From NCBI GenBank assembly GCA_902570675.1, contig CACFYZ010000001.1:96409-160408 (forward strand): 64,000 nucleotides of DNA. Reading direction: 5' to 3'. Source of the DNA: an uncultured Pelagibacteraceae bacterium (GTDB lineage Bacteria; Pseudomonadota; Alphaproteobacteria; Pelagibacterales; AG-422-B15). This document shows, piece by piece, positions 11,126-37,260 of this stretch (the stretch's first letter is position 1; every line of letters begins with the position of its first letter). The notes beneath the pieces were generated by a model. The model saw only the letters and a program-made list of their open reading frames with translations, was not told where the DNA came from and did not search any database. A program made the position numbers and the translations under genes.

Positions 11126-11210
11126 AAAAAACAATAGTTTCAGTTACTTATTATAATAATAATTGAAATCTTTAAAATTTAATGAATCTATCTATATAAA
11201 TCTCTTAATT

Positions 11211-11771
11211 ATGTTTATACAAACTGAATCAACGCCAAATCCTAATTCTCTTAAATTCATACTTGAAAATTACAAGCTATGTAACGAGTCAAGGGAATTC
11301 AACAAATTGACAAGTAGTAATTCAAAACTTGCGGAAAAACTTTTTAAAATCGAAGGTGTTGAAAAGATTTTTTTTAATGAAAATATCATTTCCATAAATA
11401 AGAACAAATACAATTGGGATCAATTAAAAGCTTCAATCCTTCAAGTTATCTCTGATTTTATACATTCGGGTCTACCTCCAGTTGGAGATAGCGATCAAGA
11501 AATTAAAAATGATAATGAGATTAAGTTTAACGACATTGACAAAGAAATTGTAAGTAACATAAATACTATTTTAGAAACAAAAGTCAGACCAGCGATTATG
11601 CAAGACGGTGGTGATATAAAATTTAAGAGTTATGATGAGGGTATCGTTTACTTAACACTACAAGGAAGTTGCGCTGGATGTCCTAGTGCTACATTAACAC
11701 TAAAAAATGGAGTTGAAAATTTACTAAAACACCATATACCAGAAATTAAAAAAGTAGAACAAGTTGTATAG
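11211..11771 (+). CDS. NifU/Nfu-type Fe-S cluster scaffold protein (Nfu_N plus NifU C-terminal domain)
   Basis: MFIQTESTPNPNSLKF (Nfu_N start) and GSCAGCPSATLTLKNGVENLL (CxxC). The ATG at 11211 is preferred over the track's TTG at 11163. Confidence 0.85.
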   Translation: MFIQTESTPNPNSLKFILENYKLCNESREFNKLTSSNSKLAEKLFKIEGVEKIFFNENIISINKNKYNWDQLKASILQVISDFIHSGLPPVGDSDQEIKNDNEIKFNDIDKEIVSNINTILETKVRPAIMQDGGDIKFKSYDEGIVYLTLQGSCAGCPSATLTLKNGVENLLKHHIPEIKKVEQVV

Positions 11772-14445: not shown

Positions 14446-14859
14446 ATGGTCGATGTAAAAAAAATGTGCCAAGACAAGGGCCTTAGAATGACTGAGCAAC
14501 GTAACATCATTGCCGATGTTATAAGTCAAATGAGTATAGAGGGTCATCCAGATGTAAACGAAATTTTTCTAAACGCCAACGCAAAAGATAAAAACATAAG
14601 TATTGCTACTGTTTATCGTACGGTGAAGCTATTTGAAGAATATAATGTAATAGAAAAACATGAATTTAAAGACGGAAGATCAAGATATGAAGCAATTGAA
14701 GAACATCATCATGACCATCTTATAGATATTGAGTCAGGAGAGATTCATGAATTTACTAATAATGAAATTGAGTCAATTCAAAAAGCTGTTGCAAAAGAAC
14801 TAGGCTACAATCTTGTTGATCATAGACTCGAATTATACGGTATTAAAATAAAGAAATAA
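14446..14859 (+). CDS. fur: Fur-family metalloregulator (Fur/Mur-type, cysteine-poor, HHHDH motif)
   Basis: Winged helix LRMTEQRNII...SIATVYRTVKLFEE and the EEHHHDHLIDIESGEI metal-site region. Sits in the conserved tsaB-fur-plsC-miaB string. Confidence 0.85.
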   Translation: MVDVKKMCQDKGLRMTEQRNIIADVISQMSIEGHPDVNEIFLNANAKDKNISIATVYRTVKLFEEYNVIEKHEFKDGRSRYEAIEEHHHDHLIDIESGEIHEFTNNEIESIQKAVAKELGYNLVDHRLELYGIKIKK

Positions 14860-14860
14860 A

Positions 14861-15634
14861 ATGTCAGCACTAAGACTAATTCTCATTTTATTTTTACTGA
14901 CAATTTTCATATTTATTTCGATACCTTTACAAATCATCTTTAATATTATTGGATTTAAGTTACGAAGAATATATCCACTATTGTTTTATAGAATAATCAA
15001 ATTTATTACGGGAATTCAAATTAACTTTGATAAGAATTCTTATAACAAAAGAATAAAAGGAACCCTTTTTGTTGCCAATCATGTATCTTGGTTTGATATA
15101 ATATGTCTGGGCACAATACTGAATGCTAGATTCATTGCCAAAAAAGAAGTTTCTGAAATGGGAATATTTGGATTTTTAGCAAAGCTTAGTAATACTTTTT
15201 TTATTGATAATTCTGATAAAAACAAAATTATTGAATACAACAAACTAATTAAAAGTAAATTAGAGAAAGGTGAAAATTTTATAATTTTTCCTGAAGGTAC
15301 AACTTCAGATGGCAATGGTGTAAATCAATTTAAATCATCTATGTTAGAATGCGCATTTAACAATAAAAATGACACCTTTGTGCAACCTATATCCATTTGT
15401 TATTCAAAAAAAAATAATATACCAATGGGTTTATTTTTGAGAAGAAATATAGCATGGGTTGGAGATACGCCCATGGTTGAAGCTATGTGGAACTTTTTAA
15501 GCAGTGGTCCTATCACAGTAGATCTCGTATTTCACCATGTTCTCGATATTAAAAAATTTAATAACAGGAAAGATTTAACTTCATTTTGTGAAGAACAAAT
15601 CCTTCAAGGTCTTAATAAAAAAATAAAAATTTAA
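14861..15634 (+). CDS. plsC: 1-acyl-sn-glycerol-3-phosphate acyltransferase family protein
   Basis: HX4D motif NHVSWFD and the FPEGTTS motif. N-terminal membrane helix. Confidence 0.8.
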   Translation: MSALRLILILFLLTIFIFISIPLQIIFNIIGFKLRRIYPLLFYRIIKFITGIQINFDKNSYNKRIKGTLFVANHVSWFDIICLGTILNARFIAKKEVSEMGIFGFLAKLSNTFFIDNSDKNKIIEYNKLIKSKLEKGENFIIFPEGTTSDGNGVNQFKSSMLECAFNNKNDTFVQPISICYSKKNNIPMGLFLRRNIAWVGDTPMVEAMWNFLSSGPITVDLVFHHVLDIKKFNNRKDLTSFCEEQILQGLNKKIKI

Positions 15635-15639
15635 AAATT

Positions 15640-16947
15640 GTGAAAAATTCTAAATTTTTTATTAAATCGTATGGTTGTCAAATGAATTTCTATGACAGTC
15701 AAAAGATAACCACAATACTTGAGAGCAAAGGTTATCAATTACAAGATAGTGCAGATAATGCTGACTTAGTTGTGTTTAATACATGTAACATAAGAGATAA
15801 AGCAGCTCACAAAGTTTATTCAGATATTGGAAGGATTAATAAATTTGATAATAAAAAAACAATTGCAATAGTTGGCTGTGTTGCTCAGGCGGAAAATAGC
15901 GAAATGTTTAAAAAGAATCATGCAATCGATATAGTACTTGGACCACAAAGTTACCATCTGTTGCCTCAAATGATCAAAGATCTTAATAAAAAATCAAAAT
16001 TAATAAATACAGATTTTATTGTTAATGAAAAATTTGACTACCTATCCGAGCAGCATAGACCTCAGGGTATTTCTTCATATATAACCATTCAAGAAGGATG
16101 CGATAAGTTTTGCTCGTTTTGTGTTGTTCCTTATACTCGTGGACCAGAATATTCAAGATCAATTGAAGCTATATCAAAAGAAGCAGATTTGTTGACAAGT
16201 AAAGGAGCACGAGAAATTGTTTTGCTGGGTCAAAACGTAAATGCTTATCAGGATTTATCTTCGAACAAAGTAAAAAGATTAAGTCATTTAATTGAAAATC
16301 TGAGTCAAAATGAGAATCTCAAACGGATAAGATACACAACCTCACACCCCATTAATATGAATAAAGATTTAATAGATTGTCACGCTGAGAGCTCAAAGCT
16401 TATGCCATTCTTACACTTGCCTGTGCAGTCTGGTTCTTCAATAATTTTAAGAAAAATGAACCGAAAATATGACTCAAATTTTTATAGAGAAATAATTTAT
16501 AAGTTAAAAAAAGCTAAACCTTCAATTCAAATTTCATCTGATTTTATTGTTGGCTACCCAGGTGAAACGGACAAAGATTTTCAAGATACACTTGATTTAG
16601 TTGATGAAATGGAATTTACTCAATCATATTCATTTATTTATAGTTCAAGACCTGGAACTAAAGCTGCATCAGAGACTGATGATACACCTCTTCATGTAAA
16701 AAGAGAGCGCTTAAAGATTCTCCAGGAAAAATTAAAAAATATTCAGCTAAAATTTAATCAAGGGTTCTGCAATAAAAATATTGAAGTATTAATTGAAAAT
16801 AAAAGCGCAAGTAACCCAGAATATTTTTTTGGACGAACACCATATATGCAATCGGTCTATATAAAATCGTCTAATCTCAAAGACGGTGATATTAAAAATG
16901 TAAGTATTTCGACTTGCAACCATAAGAGTTTGTATGGTAGTTGTTAA
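15640..16947 (+). CDS. miaB: tRNA-2-methylthio-N6-dimethylallyladenosine synthase
   Basis: SYGCQMN, radical-SAM motif CDKFCSFC, and a TRAM-like C-terminus. GTG start. Confidence 0.93.
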   Translation: MKNSKFFIKSYGCQMNFYDSQKITTILESKGYQLQDSADNADLVVFNTCNIRDKAAHKVYSDIGRINKFDNKKTIAIVGCVAQAENSEMFKKNHAIDIVLGPQSYHLLPQMIKDLNKKSKLINTDFIVNEKFDYLSEQHRPQGISSYITIQEGCDKFCSFCVVPYTRGPEYSRSIEAISKEADLLTSKGAREIVLLGQNVNAYQDLSSNKVKRLSHLIENLSQNENLKRIRYTTSHPINMNKDLIDCHAESSKLMPFLHLPVQSGSSIILRKMNRKYDSNFYREIIYKLKKAKPSIQISSDFIVGYPGETDKDFQDTLDLVDEMEFTQSYSFIYSSRPGTKAASETDDTPLHVKRERLKILQEKLKNIQLKFNQGFCNKNIEVLIENKSASNPEYFFGRTPYMQSVYIKSSNLKDGDIKNVSISTCNHKSLYGSC

Positions 16948-34248: not shown

Positions 34249-34303
34249 TGGAATTATCTATCTTATTGTATTATATGAAGTTTATTAAGATTAAAGTATT
34301 ATC

Positions 34304-34318
34304 ATTGTAAAATACAAT
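34304..34318. promoter_or_regulatory. Perfect 6-3-6 palindrome ATTGTAaaaTACAAT in the fabA/irr divergent spacer (candidate operator)
   Basis: Read directly from the sequence. No known regulator is assigned. Confidence 0.3.
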
Positions 34319-34341: not shown

Positions 34342-34734
34342 ATGAAAGATATCAAGGATTTTTTAAGATCGAATTCTCTAAGGCCTACTAAGCAAAGAGT
34401 GTTAATAGCTGAATACTTATTCGATGGTGAAAATAAACACGTTACTGCTGAAAAACTCTCAAACGAACTTAATAGACGTAGAACAGGAATCTCATTAGCA
34501 ACAGTTTACAACACCTTACATGATTTTTACGAGAGAGGTCTCTTAAAAAAATTATCGCTAGGTTTAGATAGAGTGTATTTTGATACGAATACCGACCATC
34601 ATCATCACTTCTATTCTGATAAAGAACAACTGCTAATTGATATTAATAATAAGTTAAAGGTATCAGGTTTACCGAAGTTACCAAAAAATAAAAAAACAAA
34701 TAAGATTGAAGTCATAGTTCATCTAGATAATTAA
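34342..34734 (+). CDS. irr: Iron response regulator Irr (Fur family, cysteine-free, HHHH motif)
   Basis: Fur-type wHTH (RPTKQRVLIAEYL...SLATVYNTLHDF) and a DHHHHFY His cluster. No Cys. Divergent from fabA, as in many alphaproteobacteria. Confidence 0.8.
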   Translation: MKDIKDFLRSNSLRPTKQRVLIAEYLFDGENKHVTAEKLSNELNRRRTGISLATVYNTLHDFYERGLLKKLSLGLDRVYFDTNTDHHHHFYSDKEQLLIDINNKLKVSGLPKLPKNKKTNKIEVIVHLDN

Positions 34735-34735
34735 T

Positions 34736-34750
34736 TGATAATAGTTATCA
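34736..34750. promoter_or_regulatory. Fur-box-like palindrome TGATAAtagTTATCA
   Basis: Perfect 6-3-6 inverted repeat. Close to the classical Fur 7-1-7 box TGATAATnATTATCA. Starts 2 nt after the irr stop. Confidence 0.5.
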
Positions 34751-34757
34751 CTATCAG

Positions 34758-34774
34758 TTTAGAATGATTCTAAA
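34758..34774. promoter_or_regulatory. Irr-binding iron control element (ICE) TTTAGAAtgaTTCTAAA
   Basis: Exact match to the published ICE consensus TTTAGAA-N3-TTCTAAA. It ends 3 nt before a TTGACA hexamer (34778..34783), upstream of rubrerythrin. Confidence 0.6.
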
Positions 34775-34835
34775 CTATTGACAATTTCCAAAAATACTAT
34801 ATTTATAACATCGGTTATTTATTGAGGAGAAAATT

Positions 34836-35255
34836 ATGACTGAATTAAAAGATAGTAAGACACTAGACAATCTAAAGGCTGCTTTCGCAGGTGAAAGTCA
34901 AGCAAACCGTAGATATCTATATTTTGCACAAAAAGCTGATGTAGAAGGACACAATGACGTCGCTGCAGTATTTAGATCAACTGCAGAAGGCGAAACTGGA
35001 CATGCTCACGGACATTTAGAATTTATGGAAGAAGTTGGTGACCCTGCAACTGGAGAGCCAATTGGTTCTACAGAAGAAAATCTAAAAGCTGCTATTGCAG
35101 GTGAAACGCATGAGTACACAGATATGTATCCTGGAATGGCAAAGACTGCGCGAGAGGAAGGCTTTGATGAAATTGCTGATTGGTTTGAAACATTAGCTAA
35201 AGCAGAAAAATCCCATGCGGGTAAATTTCAAAAAACACTAGAGTCTATAGACTAA
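34836..35255 (+). CDS. rbr: Rubrerythrin-family diiron protein without a rubredoxin domain
   Basis: Ferritin-like four-helix pattern with E...ExxH pairs ([10 protein letters not shown]; GETHEY...AEKSHAGKF). 139 aa with no cysteine, so it has no rubredoxin module. GGAG RBS upstream. Confidence 0.88.
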
Positions 35256-35295: not shown

Positions 35296-36636
35296 ATGGA
35301 CAGTAAAAAAGAGGGCAGTTTAGCTGCTCCTACAAGAGATATAATCGATTGGAATTCAGATGAATACTTAGACAAAGCATCTCTGGATACTGAGATGCGC
35401 AGGCAATTTGAAGTTTGTCATAGTTGTCGAAGGTGCTTTAATTTATGCGATAGTTTTCCCACTTTATTTGATTTAATCGATGACTCACCTAATGAGTCAG
35501 TTGATGATTTAACAAAAAAAGATTTTGAAGACATTACTGACAAATGCACATTGTGTGATATGTGTTTTATGACCAAGTGTCCCTATGTTCCCCCTCATGA
35601 GTTCAATATTGATTTTCCACATTTAATGCTTAGATACAGAACTTATCAAGATAAACAAAAAAAATTACCAAAATTTCCTAAAGAGCTTGCAAAAATTGAT
35701 CGTAATGCATCAACTGCAAGGCTAGCACCAAGTATAGCGAATTGGTCATCAGGTAAGAAAAATAAATTAACGCGTAAGCCTCTAGAATTATTAAGTGGAA
35801 TTGATCAACATGCTGAACTCCCCAAATTTGAAAAAAAAACGTTTCATGATCAATTCAATAATCTTGAAAATTTAATTAACAAAAATGCGCCAGCTTATGG
35901 AAGAAAAGTTGCTATTTATTCAACTTGTTATGTCAATCACAATAATTCAAAGGTTGGTATAGCTGCTAACAAAGTATTAAACCATAATGGTGTTGAAACC
36001 ATCTCAACATATCCAGGTTGTTGTGGAATGCCGCATTTAGAGCAGGCACAACATGAAAAAGTTAAGACCCAATCAGAGAAAGTTTCAAAAGAACTCTGTA
36101 ATTTGATTGATCAGGGATATGATATTATAACACTTACTGCTAGTTGTGGTCTAATGCTTAAATTTGAATGGCAACTTATTAACCCTAGCAACGAAAATGT
36201 TAAAAGATTATCAAAGCATGTGTTTGATATTGATGAGTATATTGTTGATATTGCTAAGAAAGAGGGTCTTGTTGATGGACTAACACCCTTTGATGAAGGT
36301 GTAACAGTACACAACGCTTGTCATGCTCGAGCCCAGAACATGGGAAATAAGGCTCTTGAAATGCTAAAGAAAATACCTGAAACAAAAGTAGATGTTATTG
36401 AAAAATGTGCAGGTCATGGAGGTACATTTGGAGTGATGAAAAAAACAAGAAAACATGCTGTTAAGTATGGCAAAAGTACTGCAAGACAAATAAAAAATAA
36501 AAAAAATAAATATATGGTTTCGGACTGTCCGCTTGCCTGCAAACACCTAAATGAGTTTTTAAATCAAGACAAAGAAGCAAATTATATTTCTATGCACCCA
36601 ATCGAGGTGATTGCTAAATCTTACAATATATCTTGA
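35296..36636 (+). CDS. (Fe-S)-binding protein of the HdrD/GlpC/GlcF type (two ferredoxin-like 4Fe-4S motifs plus two CCG-type cysteine-rich domains)
   Basis: CHSCRRCFNLC and CTLCDMCFMTKCP cluster motifs. The CCG-like motifs are PGCCGMP and a second Cys-rich region (NACHARAQ, CAGHGG). Physiological substrate unknown. Confidence 0.75.
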   Translation: MDSKKEGSLAAPTRDIIDWNSDEYLDKASLDTEMRRQFEVCHSCRRCFNLCDSFPTLFDLIDDSPNESVDDLTKKDFEDITDKCTLCDMCFMTKCPYVPPHEFNIDFPHLMLRYRTYQDKQKKLPKFPKELAKIDRNASTARLAPSIANWSSGKKNKLTRKPLELLSGIDQHAELPKFEKKTFHDQFNNLENLINKNAPAYGRKVAIYSTCYVNHNNSKVGIAANKVLNHNGVETISTYPGCCGMPHLEQAQHEKVKTQSEKVSKELCNLIDQGYDIITLTASCGLMLKFEWQLINPSNENVKRLSKHVFDIDEYIVDIAKKEGLVDGLTPFDEGVTVHNACHARAQNMGNKALEMLKKIPETKVDVIEKCAGHGGTFGVMKKTRKHAVKYGKSTARQIKNKKNKYMVSDCPLACKHLNEFLNQDKEANYISMHPIEVIAKSYNIS

Positions 36637-36666: not shown

Positions 36667-37260
36667 ATGCCCATACAAAATAAAAAAATTGACAGTTCAG
36701 ATCTATTAGATCTCAACACATATGCCAAAGAGCGTAAGGCAATTAGAAGTGAACTTGTTGAAATGAAAAAAAATAGAAGAGTAGAATTGGGTCCTCACTC
36801 TACATTTTACTTTGAGAACTTTTTCACAATGAAGGCGCAAATACAAGAAATGCTATACATTGAAAAGGGAGGCGACGAACAATTAAAAGATGAACTTGAT
36901 GCTTATAATCCTCTTATACCTCAAGGTACTGAGCTAGTAGCAACATTCATGTTCGAAATAGATAATCCGGTTACTAGAAAAAAAGTTTTGTCTTCATTAG
37001 GAAATGTCGAAAACAAAATATTTATTAGTGTTAATGGAAATAAAATATTTGCAACGCCTGAGAGTGATGTTGATCGCACTGATGACTCTGGCAAAACATC
37101 TTCAGTTCACTTTCTGCATTTTAAATTTGAAGATCAACATATCAAAGATTTCAAAAATATGGAAAATCGTGTTGAAATAGGAACTGATCATAAGAATTAT
37201 CCGCATCTATCTATTTTCACAAATGAAGTTAAGGCAGCATTAATAAAAGATTTTGATTAA
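36667..37260 (+). CDS. Uncharacterised protein, DUF3501-like (recalled family; usually found next to rubrerythrin and HdrD-like genes)
   Basis: 197 aa, soluble, with no Cys and no recognisable catalytic motif. The family assignment is from memory of the conserved neighbourhood and needs an HMM check. Confidence 0.5.
   Translation: MPIQNKKIDSSDLLDLNTYAKERKAIRSELVEMKKNRRVELGPHSTFYFENFFTMKAQIQEMLYIEKGGDEQLKDELDAYNPLIPQGTELVATFMFEIDNPVTRKKVLSSLGNVENKIFISVNGNKIFATPESDVDRTDDSGKTSSVHFLHFKFEDQHIKDFKNMENRVEIGTDHKNYPHLSIFTNEVKAALIKDFD

Follow-up and report, generated by a model that had tools for sequence, protein, structure and literature searches.

Between irr and rbr, on the plus strand of a 64,000-nt stretch of DNA (hereafter the window) from an uncultured Pelagibacteraceae (SAR11) genome with 31% G+C, lies a 101-nt spacer that is, by comparative criteria, a conserved control region with functional elements. 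The irr gene encodes a Fur-family regulator that is most likely of the Irr type, and rbr, a rubrerythrin gene, heads an operon that continues with a CCG-domain Fe-S oxidoreductase and a DUF3501 protein. The spacer carries, in order, a Fur-type box, an exact match to the iron control element (ICE) consensus of Irr, and a promoter. On balance, and with some reservation, we favour the view that it acts as a composite operator-promoter: a two-sensor switch that would express a di-iron peroxidase system when iron is sufficient. SAR11 bacteria have very few regulators, and iron and peroxide sensing are hard to study genetically in these organisms (PMC2864753); the spacer is a small, conserved operator that can be put to the test, and it has two candidate sensors.

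Elements of the irr-rbr spacer and their conservation

The irr stop codon occupies 34732..34734 and rbr starts at 34836, with the spacer (34735..34835) between them. Its elements and the genes on either side are:

34342..34734, plus strand: irr, probable Irr-type Fur-family regulator of 130 aa (Pfam FUR, E 1e-18), with no cysteine
34734..34752, no strand assigned: Fur-type box, core 15-mer TGATAATAGTTATCA (34736..34750) within the 19-mer ATTGATAATAGTTATCACT, identified by consensus match and conservation
34751..34757, no strand assigned: linker CTATCAG with a TATCA half-site-like element; 3 of 4 scored columns (34753..34756) invariant, consensus AT(A/C)TCAG in relatives
34757..34775, no strand assigned: ICE, predicted Irr operator; exact consensus match, 15 of 19 columns invariant
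34778..34783, plus strand: TTGACA, -35 hexamer of the rubrerythrin promoter; 5 of 6 columns invariant in SAR11
34800..34805, plus strand: TATTTA, probable -10 hexamer, a TAnnTn 16 nt after the -35
34824..34829, plus strand: GAGGAG, Shine-Dalgarno sequence; 4 of 6 columns invariant
34836..35255, plus strand: rbr, aerobic-type rubrerythrin of 139 aa without a rubredoxin domain (Pfam Rubrerythrin, E 3.5e-30, residues 11-134); product 83-99% identical across Alphaproteobacteria
35296..36636, plus strand: CCG-domain Fe-S oxidoreductase (Pfam CCG; NCBIfam GlpC-like match below cut-off)
36667..37260, plus strand: DUF3501 protein, last gene of the operon (Pfam DUF3501, E 6e-61)

The upstream palindrome, TGATAAtagTTATCA (34736..34750), agrees with the 7-1-7 consensus TGATAAT-N-ATTATCA at 13 of 14 specified positions and with AATGATAATnATTATCATT, a consensus quoted from PMC1698941, at 15 of 18 by hand count. 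Its centre lies 23 bp upstream of that of the ICE, whose 17-mer TTTAGAAtgaTTCTAAA (34758..34774) matches TTTAGAA-N3-TTCTAAA exactly and extends to a perfect 19-bp, 9-1-9 palindrome, GTTTAGAAT-G-ATTCTAAAC (34757..34775), that stops 2 nt upstream of the TTGACA at 34778..34783. These three motifs had been picked out at the same coordinates in an earlier reading of the window (the original prediction), and direct reading of the sequence bears this out: the ICE match is exact, the TTGACA 3 nt past its 17-mer is the -35 hexamer by comparative evidence, and the palindrome's resemblance to a Fur box is conserved and not accidental. The accompanying claim that the window encodes both regulator types is also supported, by best NCBIfam matches to Irr/IrrA and Fur, all of which fall below the models' cut-offs.

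The original prediction had further raised the question of how rare the exact motifs are against random DNA, which can be answered for the window with 100 dinucleotide shuffles of its sequence. The window contains one exact ICE, against 0.004 predicted per window from composition, and no shuffle contained any; an exact TGATAA-N3-TTATCA, likewise present once, appeared in 4 of the 100 shuffles, and a 7-1-7 Fur box with at most one mismatch (again one in the window) in 8. Matches to either motif with two or three mismatches occur elsewhere in the window at background frequency, so that the spacer alone is conspicuous. The next-best ICEs, with two mismatches, lie at the start of miaB (15638) and in a coding region (19972), a number at chance level. 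The window has 54 perfect 6-3-6 palindromes of any sequence, which are common in such AT-rich DNA, so that the case for the Fur-type box is its sequence and conservation rather than its palindromy.

Conservation was assessed at loci gathered through their proteins and not through a DNA motif, namely 80 rbr loci of species-representative genomes and contigs with Irr homologues 50-78% identical (individual loci carry an L number). Column statistics, here and in the list above, derive from seven non-redundant protein-anchored SAR11 sequences. Every SAR11 locus with an Irr 56-100% identical and a same-strand gene after irr carries a shared block, TTGATAATA..T.TCA.T.TCAG TTTAGAA..ATTCTAA..T.TTGAC. 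Mean pairwise identities and invariant columns across the region are:

34735..34783, block of Fur-type box, linker, ICE and -35: 90%, 38 of 49 columns invariant
16-nt promoter spacer: 44%, 0 of 16 columns invariant
5' untranslated region: 49%, 3 of 18 columns invariant
adjacent irr coding sequence: 69%, 20 of 57 columns invariant

Within the block, the 19-mers of the Fur-type box (mean pairwise identity 91%) and the ICE each have 15 of 19 columns invariant, and in all relatives the Fur-type box retains TG...CA and the ICE TT...AA. Those changes that do occur in the arms of the box (T.C in L001, L087 and L212; A.C in L084) are non-compensatory and stay among the known Fur half-site variants ATTATCA and ATTCTCA, which points to protein binding and not to a hairpin. 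We therefore read the upstream palindrome as a conserved Fur-type site, distinct from the ICE; that its binder is Fur is likely but not secure.

Comparison also locates the promoter. TAnnTn stands exactly 16 nt past TTGAC(A/T) in every SAR11 locus examined, across 16 nt that are themselves unconserved, and 16 nt is the -35/-10 spacing of the Caulobacter sigma-70 rule (PMC2724300). A consensus-based promoter scan missed the rbr promoter because its -10 is weak; the comparative evidence is the stronger of the two, and points to TTGACA, 16 nt and TATTTA, with a probable transcription start near 34812. The core of the Fur-type box would then lie at about -76 to -62, upstream of both the ICE and the -35, and not in the classical position of a Fur repressor over the -35, the -10 or the start site.

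Much of this arrangement extends beyond SAR11. irr lies directly upstream of rbr in 49 of the 80 rbr loci, and an ICE with at most three mismatches is present in 46 of these 49, as against 8 of the 31 loci where irr is not adjacent. TTGA[CA] occurs within 12 nt after the ICE in 39 of the 46, most often (26 of 39) at a gap of 3 nt. The order irr, ICE, about 3 nt, TTGAC and rbr/Fe-S oxidoreductase/DUF3501 is found across Alphaproteobacteria of 30-70% G+C, and by this comparison the ICE followed after about 3 nt by the -35 is the ancestral layout of the rbr promoter. Fur-type boxes begin 18 nt upstream of the ICE in L015, L037 and L057 and also, as the near-classical TGATAATCATTATCT, in a separate AT-rich lineage with the gene order NMO, irr, rbr (L223-L229). 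A sample of metagenome loci chosen solely by the pattern ICE-N4-TTGAC, and thus unbiased for Fur, gave a similar result: among the matches listed, 16 of 108 non-redundant loci have a Fur-type box 17-22 nt upstream of the ICE, where 0.24% per locus is expected. The tandem of Fur-type box and ICE accordingly occurs in several distinct lineages, at centre spacings of 19-23 bp. The stacking of sites had at first been taken to be unusual; this view did not survive, since ICE, about 3 nt and TTGAC are standard across Alphaproteobacteria and the tandem recurs. Fur-type matches in the 3' end of irr (L072, L073, L078 and other SAR11) were disregarded, since constraint on the coding sequence probably accounts for them.

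The 31 rbr loci without an adjacent irr belong to Sphingomonadales, Caulobacterales and some Gamma- and Betaproteobacteria. A Fur-type box with at most two mismatches, for example TGAGAATTATTCTCA or TGCGAATAATTCTCA, is present in 12 of them, which suggests that Fur-type control of the rbr operon may be widespread. At some of these loci (Sphingomonadales and some Gammaproteobacteria, including L013, L018, L028, L039, L053 and L060) the Fur-type box, for example TGAGAATTATTCTCA or TGCGAATAAGTCGCA, stands alone, about 120-200 nt upstream.

Two candidate sensors and a model for the rubrerythrin promoter

The window encodes a candidate regulator for each of the two sites. The product of irr matches the NCBIfam models IrrA at 138 bits (cut-off 150) and Irr at 137 bits (cut-off 170), with PerRB next at 69 bits, and the NCBI name IrrA is attached to a cluster member of a relative 78% identical to it. 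It has the recognition helix SLATVYN at residues 51-57 and an HHHH run at residues 86-89, in the position of the HxH heme site of rhizobial Irr. A helix motif of the SLATVYN type is typical of Irr (PMC12748984). Without cysteine, the protein is also without a heme-regulatory motif; according to Rodionov et al. 2006 (PMC1698941), most Irr proteins lack this motif and the Irr of Pelagibacter has diverged. Taken together, the irr product is most likely an Irr, though a diverged one. The second regulator is encoded some distance upstream:

14446..14859, plus strand: fur, Fur-type regulator of 137 aa whose best NCBIfam matches are ferric uptake regulator models

Its matches to these Fur models score 82-91 bits, all below cut-off, and its sequence includes the helix IATVYR and the motif HHHDH. 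It is our candidate for the protein that binds the Fur-type box.

In the model that we favour, an Irr dimer on the ICE would cover the -35 and thereby repress the rbr/Fe-S oxidoreductase/DUF3501 operon. Irr would occupy DNA only in its heme-free form, and hence under a shortage of iron or heme, and would be released when heme and iron are plentiful, possibly also under peroxide stress. Fur-family footprints reach beyond the core motif, and with only 2 nt between the ICE and the -35, bound Irr should keep sigma-70 off that hexamer. A second ICE lies over the -10 in promoters of SAR11 relatives and other AT-rich genomes (L026, L036, L055, L090 and L115), and a site in that position can only repress. 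When iron is plentiful, Fe-Fur would bind the upstream box, where it would most likely aid expression or exclude Irr rather than repress, since in Caulobacter the promoters of sdh, nuo and acnA are activated by Fur from sites that are likewise upstream of the -35. That Irr represses an iron-consuming protein at low iron we only infer, and a peroxide-defence logic would fit at least as well as one of iron sparing.

Several observations weigh against this model. Firstly, rbr mRNA rises 1.57-fold under iron limitation in Pelagibacter ubique HTCC1062 (PMC2864753), a strain whose layout may differ; the argument appears weak either way, as mbfA of Rhodobacter sphaeroides, which is Irr-repressed, is also slightly up at low iron. 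Secondly, Irr acts in both directions according to the position of its site (PMC7762939), and an ICE directly upstream of a -35 could activate. Thirdly, a weight matrix derived from 27 published Caulobacter Fur sites, which allows alpha-type membership to be tested without circularity, scores the box at 9.3, rank 6 in the window, with shuffles reaching 12-17; as the matrix did not single out the box, its assignment to Fur rests on the classical consensus and on conservation. Fourthly, the TGA-N9-TCA outline of the box also fits Rrf2-type (RirA/IscR) boxes. Finally, P values from locus counts ignore kinship among the loci, and this applies to the P of about 2e-9 against background for Fur-type boxes at rbr loci without an adjacent irr.

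Comparison with known systems places the proposed operator close to established regulatory logic. For P. ubique, Rodionov et al. 2006 (PMC1698941) predicted a minimal iron network, with rubrerythrin as the minimal regulon of Irr and a single operon, that of the fbp iron transporter, under Fur. Clade, motif and target are the same as here, and so most likely is the regulator type, the window coming from a different, uncultured Pelagibacteraceae genome, and the ICE/Irr control of rbr is a rediscovery of that prediction. The text of that paper, supplementary site tables aside, mentions no Fur-type box by an ICE, no fixed ICE/-35 geometry and no swapping of cargo, and the Fur-type box beside the ICE appears to be unreported. 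We regard the conserved tandem Fur-type box, the fixed operator-promoter geometry and the exchangeable cargo described below as modest extensions, with nothing that departs from known Fur-family operator logic. With the core prediction of Irr control of rbr nearly twenty years old, the gain is incremental.

The closest parallels for the ICE half come from the rhizobia and from R. sphaeroides. In Bradyrhizobium japonicum, as cited in PMC3413700, Irr represses the rubrerythrin-like blr7895 and binds the ICE with a KD of 7 to 19 nM. The window and B. japonicum blr7895/bfr have in common an ICE that matches the consensus exactly, a di-iron target of the ferritin-like kind and, most likely, a regulator of the Irr type. 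The two differ in that the B. japonicum site is positioned as a repressor's would be relative to the start site, by the account in PMC3413700, whereas the ICE of the window abuts the -35 from upstream; moreover, B. japonicum Irr has an N-terminal heme-regulatory motif, which the cysteine-free Irr of the window cannot have. The Irr box of R. sphaeroides ccpA likewise serves a peroxidase, in an organism where the Irr effect is mild and the Irr regulon minimal, with two sites (PMC3413700); there, however, no adjacent Fur-type box is reported and the target is a heme peroxidase, not a rubrerythrin.

For the joint use of Fur and Irr, a precedent exists in the irr promoter of B. japonicum, which is controlled by both (Hohle and O'Brian 2010, J Biol Chem 285:26074, as cited in PMC12748984). 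Both proteins reportedly occupy that one promoter with opposite iron responses, as Fur and Irr might here; Fur is reported to act there as a repressor and Irr as an anti-repressor, and the gene that they control is irr. Caulobacter Fur activates iron-using genes (sdhCDAB, nuoA-N, acnA) from sites upstream of the -35, and represses from sites over the promoter (PMC2724300). The window resembles these activated promoters in its Fur-type site upstream of the -35, its iron-using operon and its 16-nt spacing, and the sdhC site lies 101 nt from the ATG as against about 102 nt for the window's box. Caulobacter Fur sites, however, always contain TG(C/A)GA where the window has the classical TGATAA, and Caulobacter has no Irr.

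By their Pfam domains, rbr, the CCG-domain oxidoreductase and the DUF3501 gene form an aerobic-type rubrerythrin cluster. Cardenas et al. 2016 (PMC5114695) named the Fe-S oxidoreductase RFO and described the cluster RBR-RFO-DUF3501, with the same three genes and a rubrerythrin that likewise lacks a rubredoxin domain; Fur, PerR and OxyR, searched for as whole words, are not mentioned in that paper.

Exchangeable cargo after irr and alternative readings

Between irr and dut, SAR11 lineages have either the whole rbr operon together with its operator or neither of the two. The gene immediately after irr is dut in L081-L083 and L210-L211 and an oppositely oriented photolyase-related gene in L215-L216, and none of these loci has an ICE at that position; L215 has a remnant, GTCTCAG, where the ICE would begin. 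An abundant SAR11 lineage (L084-L086 and L217-L222; Irr of 131 aa, about 56% identical) has an identical Fur-type box, ICE and promoter in front of a different gene, a 61-aa open reading frame beginning MIKEALIKKLEGQ, and the Fur-type box is thus invariant even where this is the cargo. A search of the window and of the loci gathered before L217-L222 found homologues of the 61-aa frame in L084-L086 only; L217-L222 have the identical frame. At AT-rich loci (26-36% G+C, Irr 37-47% identical, irr beside fabA), an ICE and TTGACA precede a peroxiredoxin or KatG gene, and the -10 of these promoters is often covered by a further ICE-like sequence, TTTAGAATAATTATAAA. The cargo genes concerned are:

L084-L086 3003..3188, L217-L221 2003..2188 and L222 1019..1204: 61-aa open reading frame, no Pfam family, copies differing only synonymously
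L090, L092, L113, L119, L140, L165, L180, L184, L197, L204 and L207: peroxiredoxin (Redoxin/AhpC-TSA)
L105, L109, L141, L153 and L156: KatG (catalase-peroxidase)

Among the 111 ICE-N4-TTGAC metagenome loci listed, the cargo is rbr in 63, peroxiredoxin in 11, KatG in 8, Nfu-like in 10 and another gene in 14, with 5 loci cut before the cargo; as the sample was chosen by an exact DNA pattern, these counts describe the sample only. Peroxiredoxin contains no iron. The pattern of cargo agrees better with an Irr that controls peroxide defence than with one that spares iron. It suggests that control of peroxide scavengers may have been the original job of Irr in these lineages.

The peroxiredoxin mRNAs would have very short leaders. 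Organisms of about 40-44% G+C (L099, L117, L151, L168 and L173) have an exact ICE and TTGAC before a gene for an Nfu/NifU-type Fe-S scaffold, with no irr nearby. In the GC-rich promoters of L094, L126, L167, L171, L172 and L198, a full ICE just upstream of the -35 is joined by another just after the -10.

A broader reading is possible, and we offer it tentatively: in SAR11 and AT-rich marine Alphaproteobacteria, Irr may be mainly the switch of an exchangeable peroxide-defence slot after irr, PerR-like and not iron-sparing, with Fur as a second input, one that senses iron, in the lineage studied here. The operator of ICE and -35 would then drive rubrerythrin/RFO/DUF3501, peroxiredoxin, KatG or the 61-aa protein according to lineage, and some lineages would have lost the slot. 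If this is true, the most abundant bacteria of the ocean would have in Irr their PerR-like peroxide regulator, and rbr, peroxiredoxin or katG transcripts could be read in ocean metatranscriptomes as signals of iron and oxidative state.

An unlikely alternative is that both regulators repress, Fe-Fur at high iron by spreading from its box over the ICE and the -35 and Irr at low iron. The operon would then be silent whatever the iron level, until hydrogen peroxide inactivates the repressor that happens to be bound, in the manner of PerR. The PerR box of Bacillus subtilis is TTATAAT-N-ATTATAA, and the ICE written as a 7-1-7 site (TTAGAAT) differs from it by one base per half-site; PerR models are moreover the next-best matches of the window's Irr after the Irr models. 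The cargo in relatives, almost always a peroxide scavenger by the counts given above, also agrees with such an arrangement, since iron sparing cannot explain the control of a peroxiredoxin that needs no iron. An Irr target in R. sphaeroides, mbfA, rises about 9-fold with hydrogen peroxide and only 1.5-fold with low iron (PMC3413700), and the small low-iron rise of rbr in HTCC1062 would fit relief of Fur repression. Against this, alphaproteobacterial Fur activates from positions upstream of the -35, such as that of the best Fur-type site, and Fur spreading over the ICE is speculation.

It is less probable still that Irr activates, recruiting RNA polymerase at low iron from a site centred at about -46, with Fe-Fur blocking at high iron, so that the operon would serve a low-iron stress response. 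Irr directly activates at many ICEs in a position-dependent manner (PMC7762939, PMC1698941), the ICE of the window overlaps neither the -10 nor the start site, and the 1.57-fold rise in HTCC1062 has the right direction. In sister promoters, however, the upstream ICE has a partner over the -10, a site that cannot activate, and the same geometry at R. sphaeroides ccpA went with higher expression in an irr mutant under iron limitation (PMC3413700). The induction of a di-iron protein when iron is scarce would also be counter-intuitive.

Returning to the composite operator, its Fur half depends on the identity of the upstream box, and here we consider it very improbable that the palindrome is instead a second, weaker Irr site, an Rrf2-type (IscR) target or a DNA or RNA hairpin that ends transcription of irr. 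Its outline is indeed ambiguous: the Fur, RirA, IscR and Iron-Rhodo logos all have TG-N11-CA, and TGA-N9-TCA is the outline of the RirA box (PMC1698941), which together with the unremarkable Caulobacter matrix score leaves room for another protein. The inner positions, however, follow the Fur box at 13 of 14, and few of them agree by our own reading with the gamma-proteobacterial IscR consensus ctTGActaanttacTCAgg quoted in PMC1698941. Irr is an unlikely binder at loci without an adjacent irr, which retain a Fur-type box before rbr. As for a hairpin, RNA folding predicts two (-12.5 kcal/mol, z = -2.45), which simply reflect the two palindromes. An intrinsic terminator or structured RNA was rejected: there is no terminator-like site, no U tract and no Rfam match in the spacer, and the substitutions in the arms of the box break pairing yet remain Fur half-site variants.

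The invariant G in the TGnGAA of the Caulobacter Fur sites is a T in the Fur-type box of the window, and relatives have Fur-type boxes with the alpha-type right half ATTCTCA. Written as 7-1-7 sites, the ICE (TTAGAAT-N-ATTCTAA, 34759..34773) and the alpha-type Fur box (TGAGAAT-N-ATTCTCA) differ by one base per half-site, and Fur and Irr may accordingly be discriminated at a single G/T position.

Neighbouring genes and other sites in the window

On the minus strand irr is flanked by fabI, fabB and fabA, of which fabA adjoins irr as in many Alphaproteobacteria; on the plus strand follow irr, the spacer, rbr and the two other genes of the operon, and the end of the DUF3501 gene abuts the convergent dut. 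Neither an ICE nor a Fur box was found in the fabA-irr spacer, which contains the likely promoter of irr itself:

34285..34313, plus strand: TTAAGA, 17 nt, TAAAAT, likely irr promoter, from a promoter-like scan match

The -10 of this promoter (TAAAAT, 34308..34313) falls inside a block, ATTGTAAAATA, that is conserved in nine of nine aligned SAR11 fabA-irr spacers. A perfect 6-3-6 palindrome, ATTGTAAAATACAAT (34304..34318), lies in the same block and overlaps the likely -10. It could simply be the irr promoter, or a site common to irr and the divergent fabA-fabB-fabI.

Elsewhere in the window, isolated matches fall within chance expectation, among them an ICE-like TTGTGAAAAATTCTAAA with two mismatches that overlaps the start of the miaB-like gene (15638..15654) and a Fur-matrix-like ACTAAGACTAATTCTCATT (14869..14887) at the start of the open reading frame directly after fur. 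An ICE was looked for before the nfu-like gene of the window (11211..11765) and is absent; the gene is preceded by a 7-1-7 palindrome, TTATTATAATAATAA (11148..11162), that resembles a PerR-type box.

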